DNA of 63,919 nt, filler included, from Collodictyon triciliatum (taxonomy: Eukaryota): NCBI GenBank assembly GCA_043381765.1. It is 15 parts of 15 records of this genome, joined end to end, with 100 filler letters (N's around TTAATTAATTAA, not from the genome) between each part and the next. Parts side by side here need not be neighbours in the genome. Positions count along the whole stretch, not along the records: positions 29,882 to 34,047 come from JBHJMP010006432.1; 14 more parts are not named here. The stretch is one strand, 5' to 3'. A program made the translations under genes and the position numbers. Numbering within the stretch: position 1 is the stretch's first letter; the number at the start of each line of letters is the position of its first letter. Below the pieces are notes generated by a model. It ran no database searches and was not told the origin of the DNA. It saw only the letters and a list, made by a program, of their open reading frames with translations. Below, piece after piece: positions 32,507 through 33,695 of this stretch.

Positions 32507-33695
32507 TTAGCTGATAGAGGCCGAATTCATTTTCCGTTTTTCTCCAGTTTTTTTTTGCCAACATGAGTATTCAGATGTCAGCCTATCGGTCCGTGTAACT
32601 GAAGAAATATGGGCGGCATTCTGGTGCGTGACCTCTTGTATGCCACCCAGTTCTGTGTGTAGGCGAGGGAGTATAGGTGGTAGCGGCAGTGACAAATCGC
32701 AAGGGTTATTGATGACCAGGTGTGATACGTGGGTGGTGAGTGCTTTGTCACGCGATGGAATTAATGGGTGTAAGTGATTCAATAATGGTATATTTGTGGG
32801 GTTGAATGGGGCCAGTTGAAGCGAAGACATATCTAATGGTTGGTCTTGAGTGGGATTTCTTGAGGGCATGTCTTCTGGAGTAGGAGCGATGAGTGATATC
32901 GGGGTGGTTTGGCATCCTTGAGTTGGCCGAAATGGAGTACCAGTGCATAATTTACTGAACGTAGAGTCATTACTCGCCGATTTTTTTGGATACACTTTTG
33001 TATCGGGATTTAAGCAGCTGTATGCTTTGGTCACAATGGGACTTTGGTGGGGCTGCCTCTCCGCTATTTTAACCTCGCTTGGCTCCAAATATCCTGTAGT
33101 TAGTGTGAAAGGTAGAATAGGTATGTATTTTGCGATTCTTTTATTTCTCAATAAAAAAAAAAGGGGATTATCGGGTCATATTTCTGCGTAATTTGAATGC
33201 ATCATTACTAAGGAAAAAATTATAAAAAAATAAAAGGATTATATTGCAATAGCCTGTGAAATTACCGCCATCGTCAAGGGGCGCTTTTGATAAGAACCCG
33301 AATTCATAGCATCCATCCTCGATTCTACGCTCAAGCTTTTGGAATTTTTCGATGAAGGCGGCATATTTCTGTGGCAGTGCTTTCCTAATCACTTGCTTTA
33401 CTTGGAACCAACCTGCATCCCATGCCTATTATAAAAAAATGTTTGTAGTTTGTTAACGCGATCTCATTTTATGAATGCTGCAAAAGTTGGTTTAAATAAT
33501 TCTCAAATAGCGTTTGCGTCTATGATATTACTGTTTCGAACAACACTTTTTCTTGGTATACGTGATATAGTTTCCTACGTGAAGGTGGAGGTCCTTTGAT
33601 ATGCTGGCTTCTTTTGCTCTCTCAGGAAGGGATTCAACCACCAATTCTCTTGCCATCGTCAAAATCTCTTGTGCGTCAGGGGAAATCTCCATGAC
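32507..33695 (-). CDS. 3' exons of a gene resembling the C-terminus of bacterial/phage N6-adenine DNA methyltransferase (type IIG R-M-like) proteins, plus a Pro/Ser-rich tail
   Basis: Exons 33695-33579, 33425-33266 and 33093-32507 join in frame at GT-AG introns: VMEISPDAQEILTMARELVVESLPERAKEASISKDLHLH|AWDAGWFQVKQVIRKALPQKYAAFIEKFQKLERRIEDGCYEFGFLSKAPLDDG|GYLEPSE. Family call is from recalled motifs; catalytic motifs are not in this contig. Confidence 0.6.

Follow-up and report, generated by a model that had tools for sequence, protein, structure and literature searches.

The 3′ end of an intron-bearing Collodictyon triciliatum gene related to a type IIL-like restriction-methylase family of prokaryotes and phages

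A 63,919-nt stretch of DNA from Collodictyon triciliatum (assembly GCA_043381765.1), here called the window, carries the 3′ end of a gene on the minus strand at 32014–34047, within the block at 29882–34047. The gene is transcribed and eukaryotic and bears spliceosomal introns, and two of these, intron 1 and the intron upstream of the first visible exon, are spliced out in close relatives. On sequence comparison its product carries a module that is homologous, residue for residue, to the three-helix C-terminal bundle of a family of large prokaryotic, plasmid and phage proteins. Judged from structural models, that family is built like a type IIL/IIG restriction-modification (R-M) enzyme, with the layout of MmeI and DrdV. 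The locus is read here, with fair though limited confidence, as the tail-end exons of an expressed protist gene that derives from the type IIL-like family and, by analogy with one eukaryotic relative, is probably non-catalytic.

All coordinates count along the whole window, and the features are collected in Table 1. The block starts, at 34047, inside the upstream intron, and exons further 5′ lie outside the window. When the three visible exons were joined by script they formed a single open frame of 287 codons and a stop, which bears out the intact spliced frame proposed by the first-pass annotation. That annotation had also placed intron 1 inside a conserved H-L-x-A-W-D-A-G motif; this was confirmed at 33578–33426, where the intron separates H-L-H from A-W-D-A-G. 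The ATG at 33692 is an internal methionine. An in-frame TAA at 33713–33711, seven codons upstream, sits in the upstream intron, and the gene does not start at this ATG because an upstream exon is spliced onto 33695 in a cDNA-like contig described below. The third exon is rich in proline (11.8%), serine (10.8%) and threonine (9.7%), has no family match in Pfam or NCBIfam and probably encodes a disordered tail.

Scored with a profile built from the family's ~100 C-terminal residues, the spliced module reached 104.6 bits (E 1.4e-34, single sequence), compared with 62.0 bits for exon 2 alone, 29.8 bits for exon 1 alone and 7.6 bits for the best of 200 shuffles. The alignment is ungapped across the splice junction. 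The likeness to the extreme C-terminus of prokaryotic and phage N6-adenine methyltransferase proteins, which the first-pass annotation had proposed, thus holds in a scored comparison. The spliced module keeps 11/11 invariant family columns (S-x-D-A, R, W-D-A-G, Q, Y, L) and 11/13 nearly invariant ones, and one of the two missed columns belongs to an exon outside the window. Its identity to 17 prokaryotic rows is 34–46%.

Exon 2 by itself (53 aa), searched exhaustively against 1.84 billion proteins, returned 39 at a whole-library E ≤ 1e-3. In 31/39, which are up to 947 aa long or are C-terminal fragments, the match ends ≤7 residues from the C-terminus. The best match (whole-library E 3.6e-8, 52% identity) was P0005, a 555-aa open reading frame (ORF) from the Diphylleia rotans transcriptome in EukProt. 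One other match, P0006, is a repeat protein that looks spurious and was set aside. Against plasmids, tblastn of exon 2 gave E values of 6e-7 to 1e-3 at 40–47% identity to the last 45–50 residues of ~890-aa Lactobacillaceae proteins; against GenBank phages it gave three matches, all at E ≥ 4. The exons matched no family in Pfam, NCBIfam or PHROGs and had no usable match in the ESM Atlas. Against PDB sequences, exon 2 gave chance coiled-coil matches only (E ≥ 1.3). A word-index search of 5.8 billion clusters gave nothing for exon 2; longer proteins gave six candidates, none of which scored, and proteins of near length gave none.

When 40 family proteins were searched against the window by tblastn, they matched at 33243–33890 only. 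S-adenosylmethionine (SAM)-binding, NPP(Y/F) and PD-(D/E)xK parts, which the first-pass annotation had suggested looking for in upstream exons, were not found in the window by this search. The window holds no nuclease or methyltransferase part because the 5′ exons lie beyond the ~4.2-kb contig block.

Splicing was examined in contigs of two small sequencing runs, X1 and X2. No run that matches the locus is recorded as RNA; the RNA nature of these two, the best-matching ones, is a guess, and their contigs are hence called cDNA-like. They fit the locus at 90–99% identity, and their source organisms are near to, yet distinct from, that of the window. Loose ends of the contigs resemble what we take to be a template-switch (SMART) oligo. 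X1 record 5 joins 33424 to 33578 and skips exactly the 153 nt of intron 1. X1 record 7 (708 nt) fits 33668–33697 and continues into 678 nt unlike the window, with the break at the acceptor CAG/G (33696/33695). The last 10 codons before this junction, hand-translated in the exon frame, keep the family's R-[YF]-[VI]-[YF]-x2-L spacing. The family segment, here R-Y-V-Y-x2-L, is contiguous with the module in the relative's cDNA-like contig only, and the 30-letter loose end upstream of 33695 has no match within the window at ≤3 mismatches. X1 record 6 follows the genomic sequence, with the upstream intron unspliced, to 33890.

The same contigs report on constraint. The first exon has one synonymous difference from X1 record 5, and the second exon has no difference from X1 or X2. 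In X1, exons 1 and 2 together therefore carry one synonymous change in 277 nt, compared with nine indels in ~858 nt of introns and untranslated region (UTR). Four indels of X1 record 1 fall in the 3′ UTR part. Candidate intron 2 carries three indels in X1 and two in X2, and in neither case is their summed length divisible by three.

Bacterial, plasmid or phage DNA contaminating the assembly was considered as a source of the module. The block is one of several short unplaced contigs in a chain, another of which (12809–16976) has 60% G+C, and the closest DNA-level relatives in public plasmids are from Lactobacillaceae. This source is refuted because a spliced cDNA-like contig exists, provided that the joined form is absent from DNA of the same organism: the otherwise colinear match has two GT..AG interruptions, and intron 1 is exactly removed. 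The G+C content is 39%, and microsatellites are of eukaryote type. Bacterial promoter and terminator scans at the locus did not rise above shuffles, with five sigma-70-like sites against a shuffle mean of 6.7. Contamination, which the first-pass annotation had already thought unlikely, is now extremely improbable.

The two GT-AG introns of the first-pass annotation fared differently. Intron 1 and the upstream intron have junctions in X1; candidate intron 2 (33094–33265) is spanned by no more than two contigs, X1 record 5 and X2 record 12, and both retain it, record 5 although intron 1 has been removed. With candidate intron 2 retained, the frame meets a stop at 33170–33168, 32 codons past the exon 2 donor site and 41 past the bundle's G-F-L, and there is no tail. 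The protein of the main mRNA would then stop near the prokaryotic end, and the frame at 33093–32507 would be untranslated. The third-exon substitutions agree with this, being five non-synonymous to two synonymous with no sign of purifying selection, as does the dissimilarity of the tail to that of D. rotans.

Other properties of the third exon speak for translation. Its frame is open for 195 codons past the acceptor and for 222 codons from stop to stop, whereas 10 stops interrupt each of the other two frames. In shuffles of local composition, 195 or more open codons arose in 0.04–0.085% of trials (P = 4e-4 to 8.5e-4). The third exon has no indels in 587 nt and seven substitutions relative to X1 and X2, against the nine indels of intron and UTR in X1. 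The donor GTAATT and the CTAAC..AG acceptor of candidate intron 2 are similar to the signals of intron 1. The D. rotans protein likewise runs into a ~350-aa tail, and rarer isoforms get dropped from contigs. The tail, which the first-pass annotation had described as a ~195-aa Pro/Ser/Thr-rich continuation, is thus open beyond chance in a frame that both covering contigs leave unspliced; it is probably translated in at least one isoform. That candidate intron 2 is no intron in the main mRNA at all is rated somewhat unlikely.

The parent family consists of single-chain proteins of ~800–950 aa in bacteria, archaea, plasmids and phages, and neither Pfam nor NCBIfam has a model for it. A member opens with a nuclease-like part (D..ExK), continues through a helical spacer into a gamma-class N6-adenine methyltransferase and closes with a target recognition domain (TRD) and the C-terminal bundle. 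The alignment has a conserved G-x-F-F-T-P-x-I-W helix, motif I as V-W-D-C-A-x-G-T-G-N-L-T-R-D and motif IV as F-I-N-P-P-Y. D..E-x-K..Q-x3-Y is found in 9/9 alignment rows that reach the N-terminus, and D-x9-E-F-K in the 10/10 ORFs printed for a divergent clade of Bacteroidota/Selenomonadaceae type. Among ORFs of ≥750 aa from fetched loci, motif I occurs in 62/62, NPP[YFW] in 60/62 and WDAGW, ≤60 residues from the end, in 60/62.

Relatives are widespread. In prokaryote contigs, with one genome per species, 89/124 pattern matches encode a relative (Clostridium, Bacteroidota, Selenomonadaceae, Nanoarchaeota and others), and in IMG/VR 114/123 do. A scan of JGI metagenomes gave three relatives, of which the best, L083 (51% identity), is bacterial. 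The neighbourhoods of 12 prokaryotic loci have no constant partner; many of the neighbours are housekeeping genes and some belong to type I R-M or McrBC systems, and such variety is the expectation for a self-contained single-chain system. Among five large viral records, phage terminase was found in 3/5 and a capsid of nucleocytoplasmic large DNA viruses (NCLDV) in 0/5. On a giant-virus route the 0/5 says little, since the capsid control was silent.

Existing models catch the family poorly. At the curated Pfam cut-off only P0022 of 13 members matches N6_Mtase and Eco57I, and P0010 passes solely through its gp32 part. Three plasmid family proteins had no Pfam or NCBIfam match. PADLOC, run on family relatives, gave a single weak match (MTase_II, E 0.0027, for P0023). 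Where members are named (loci L004–L082 and L086–L164; proteins P0003–P0086) they are annotated "hypothetical protein". The motif string WDAGW/AWDAGW occurs in none of the papers searched.

Some members have unusual architectures. In P0010 (532 aa) the family's C-terminal half is joined to a single-strand DNA-binding part that resembles gp32 (Pfam gp32, E 8e-13). P0022 (1004 aa) has the C-terminal module first, then a methyltransferase domain, and after it the post-methyltransferase segment in five repeats. These architectures may be gene-calling artefacts or real rearrangements. In ~22/79 viral loci (L086–L164) the longest motif-bearing ORF is ~500 aa rather than ~800–900 aa; the genes may be split, the copies truncated or a different genetic code in use.

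The type IIL/IIG assignment rests mainly on structure. The family profile aligned with DrdV (E 0.0044) and HsdM (E 0.017) among PDB sequences over motifs X, I and IV. For P0023, the AlphaFold model reaches a mean predicted local distance difference test score (pLDDT) of 83.5, and its C-terminal 100 residues score 92–97. Searched with Foldseek, this model matched DrdV (1e-8), MmeI (1e-7) and BpuSI (1e-6), followed by LlaBIII, BrxX/PglX, BsaXI and CamA. VIA-align gave Z scores of 15.7 for DrdV, 15.2 for LlaGI, 14.2 for M.TaqI and 13.7 for MmeI, the last pairing model residues 280–833 with chain residues 290–892. According to PMC4833311, MmeI has five domains with a C-terminal helical bundle at 826–919. 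The family has a type IIL/IIG-like build, and the window encodes, by homology, the counterpart of this bundle; any recognition, nuclease or methyltransferase domain would lie in 5′ exons outside the window.

MmeI and DrdV (type IIL) and BpuSI (type IIG) thus share their five-part layout with the prokaryotic relatives and are the best structural matches, while sequence similarity between them and the family is marginal (profile against PDB, E 0.0044). The window gene differs from all three in its introns, eukaryotic setting and probable disordered tail, and it is known here from its C-terminal part. The Lactobacillaceae plasmid proteins WP_035425146.1 (pHL20_1) and WP_011476642.1 (pMP118), of ~890 aa, also carry the module at the C-terminus, along with motif I and T-N-P-P-Y-G. 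Unlike the window gene they are intron-less, end ≤5 residues past the module and are full enzymes by motif.

The nearest relative is the D. rotans protein, whose long isoform is P0045 (1132 aa). By hhalign, P0045 residues 89–776 align with family positions 293–815 (E 1.3e-48), and the nuclease and spacer part is absent. Motif I is degenerate (V-V-W-D-F---T-G-I-F), although the methyltransferase domain still aligns, and [DNS]PP[YFW] was found nowhere in the protein. The model of P0045 is confident in the TRD (405–610) and the bundle (681–780); pLDDT is below 50 in residues 1–79, two inserts and residues 784–1132. The N-terminus has a basic K-R-R-K-R-G-R run. Like the window gene, this protein has the module followed, past G-F-L, by a long tail, here S/T/P/Q-rich with pLDDT <50, and the segments just upstream of the module align alike. 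The two share only 49% identity over 86 columns, their tails are unrelated in sequence, and P0045 is known at full length whereas the window gene is not. Compared with the P0005 tail, and with the Pro/Ser/Thr-rich ORF at 41008–42138 elsewhere in the window, the third-exon tail was not significantly similar to either.

A quick tree of 70 rows and 94 columns, the phylogeny that the first-pass annotation had suggested, places the D. rotans protein as the nearest row to the window module. A word search with P0045 residues 440–800 gave 37 matches of 637–882 aa, all from metagenomes, none labelled eukaryotic and none with a tail. No further eukaryotic member was found in this search or in the exhaustive exon 2 search, within the limits of those searches. 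A literature search for D. rotans with methyltransferase gave nothing relevant. A prokaryotic or phage origin is supported as the simplest reading of the family's distribution.

This kind of event is already known, because Iyer, Zhang and Aravind (2016, PMC4738411) describe at least 13 independent eukaryotic acquisitions of N6A methyltransferases from R-M and phage systems. The same authors describe nuclease-MTase-MTase-S fusions (group 2 clades; MTase, methyltransferase) in Reticulomyxa and basal fungi, and inactive derivatives. As in those clades, an R-M-type gene of the M.EcoKI/M.TaqI structural group resides here in a microbial eukaryote; its GT..AG introns, with intron 1 and the upstream intron spliced out, mark it as resident. 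This family may itself already be one of the 13 clades. A preprint on a DAM retrotransposon was rejected as a match; it concerns another methyltransferase group.

Such precedents bear on whether the product of the whole gene is even now a working, sequence-specific N6-adenine DNA methyltransferase or an entire R-M-like enzyme used in defence or epigenetic marking. The acquisitions in PMC4738411, with nuclease-fused forms in Reticulomyxa, the near-universal motif I and NPP[YFW] of the prokaryotic relatives and a window module as intact as in enzymes all agree with activity. No methyltransferase or nuclease sequence lies within the window, however, and a long disordered tail is foreign to the 31 prokaryotic matches that end ≤7 residues past the module. 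An active N6-methyladenine (6mA) or defence enzyme is less likely than a non-catalytic derivative because D. rotans P0045, the closest eukaryotic relative, lost the nuclease region and both catalytic motifs; taken by itself, activity is unlikely. Of the horizontally acquired, domesticated 6mA methyltransferase or defence gene proposed in the first-pass annotation, the lateral origin is supported by the family's distribution, and the enzymatic half has become less likely.

A decaying relic, a transcribed but functionless fragment or pseudogene of a transferred gene, would fit a locus of which only the 3′ part is in view, with an intron retained. The X1 contig with the upstream intron unspliced has a depth of 19.4, deeper than the spliced contig at 6.13, though contig depth is a poor measure. 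The 5.8 billion clusters gave no exon-2-containing protein in the word search, so the gene is apparently unannotated. The module nevertheless keeps every invariant residue, and 287 codons run without a stop or frameshift. Between the module and its counterparts in two related organisms there is a single synonymous change, in contrast to the indel divergence of the flanks, and the upstream exon carries the homology on in frame. Decay is thus improbable. As for the deeper contig over 33668–33890, it could stem from RNA left unspliced, from carried-over DNA or from a transcript that starts internally.

The remainder of the window consists of other blocks, 15 in all, of ~4.16–4.22 kb, joined by N44-TTAATTAATTAA-N44 linkers. 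Linker spacing is 4257–4318 nt and roughly descending, and the arrangement looks like a concatenation of unplaced contigs in order of size. Because the window is such a chain, blocks on either side of a linker give no evidence of synteny. The thiolase gene in the next block is not a demonstrated neighbour of the module gene, since a linker lies between them. The block at 12809–16976 has ~60% G+C, against ~35% elsewhere, and an uninterrupted 341-codon ORF at 14660–15685 on the minus strand (Pfam Alpha-amylase, E 4e-5); foreign or contaminating DNA could account for it, as could a genome compartment of quite another kind. In the third exon, 32562–32712 and 32801–32951 are matched without difference by two 151-nt contigs from X3, a run of a freshwater metagenome. 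From these contigs, with a small word share, comes a hint of a freshwater habitat for the organism.

Table 1. Features of the module gene and of other blocks, in window coordinates
Feature	Coordinates	Strand	Remarks
Upstream intron, 3′ end	33696–34047	-	Acceptor CAG at 33698–33696; X1 contig record 7 breaks here
First visible exon (not the gene's first)	33579–33695	-	Bundle's first long helix, up to H-L-H
Intron 1	33426–33578	-	153 nt, GT..AG, phase 0; X1 contig joins 33424 to 33578, CT..AC ends on + strand
Second visible exon	33266–33425	-	AWDAGW motif and bundle's last two helices, to G-F-L plus 9 codons
Candidate intron 2	33094–33265	-	172 nt, GT..AG, phase 1, CTAAC 5 nt before AG
Third exon	32507–33093	-	195 codons, Pro/Ser/Thr/Leu-rich, TAA at 32509–32507
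3′ UTR, minimum extent	32014–32506	-	X1 record 1 spans 32014–32759 in one piece
Thiolase gene, multi-intron exons (Thiolase_N, Thiolase_C)	34290–36862	-	Ends at Thiolase_C profile position 83/123, at (GACAAA)n run and block end
PEX11-like ORF	23058–23747	-	Block of ~50% G+C; probable coding
Leucine-rich-repeat exons	50649–51203 and 58144–58476	+	Two blocks; probable coding
377-codon Pro/Ser/Thr-rich ORF	41005–42138	-	No family; probable coding
Linkers	4215, 8483, 12753, 17021, 21292, 25559, 29826, 34092, 38410, 42670, 46932, 51192, 55450, 59707

On the favoured reading of the module gene as a probably non-catalytic derivative, a bacterium or phage would have passed the gene laterally to a eukaryotic lineage, where it would later have gained its introns. 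By analogy with P0045, nuclease and methyltransferase chemistry was probably lost, and the TRD and bundle would be kept together with a long disordered tail. The product is predicted to reside in the nucleus and to bind DNA by means of the recognition scaffold that it has kept. Its bundle may brace the recognition domain, as in MmeI, and the low-complexity tail might recruit partners. Such a protein would be neither a restriction enzyme nor a 6mA writer.

Several points weigh against this reading, among them the retained candidate intron 2, with its early stop and third-exon substitution pattern, and the deeper unspliced contig. The functional part is argued from one relative, known from a transcriptome assembly. 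The 5′ exons of the window gene lie outside the window and may have kept intact motifs; that the protein binds DNA, resides in the nucleus and has lost its activity is a prediction. The tree leaves shared and separate acquisition undecided, as its 94 columns do not settle the matter: the eukaryotic label needs two changes, and the window and D. rotans are not grouped by any starred branch. A bolder version, in which at least two distant microbial eukaryotes, this organism and D. rotans, turned a phage or bacterial type IIL-like restriction-methylase into a nuclease-less, non-catalytic reader with a disordered tail, and so into a new class of transcription-factor-like sequence-specific DNA binders, is doubtful at present.

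The locus adds to the known list of transfers a eukaryotic gene, unannotated but expressed and with introns, that descends from a prokaryotic or phage restriction-methylase family. The parent family is itself brought to light; it is type IIL-like and common in bacteria, archaea, plasmids and large phages, yet has no model in Pfam or NCBIfam. If the eukaryotic proteins turn out to be active, motif-specific 6mA in protists could be their work. If they are dead DNA readers, the recognition module of a defence enzyme would be reusable in the nucleus.

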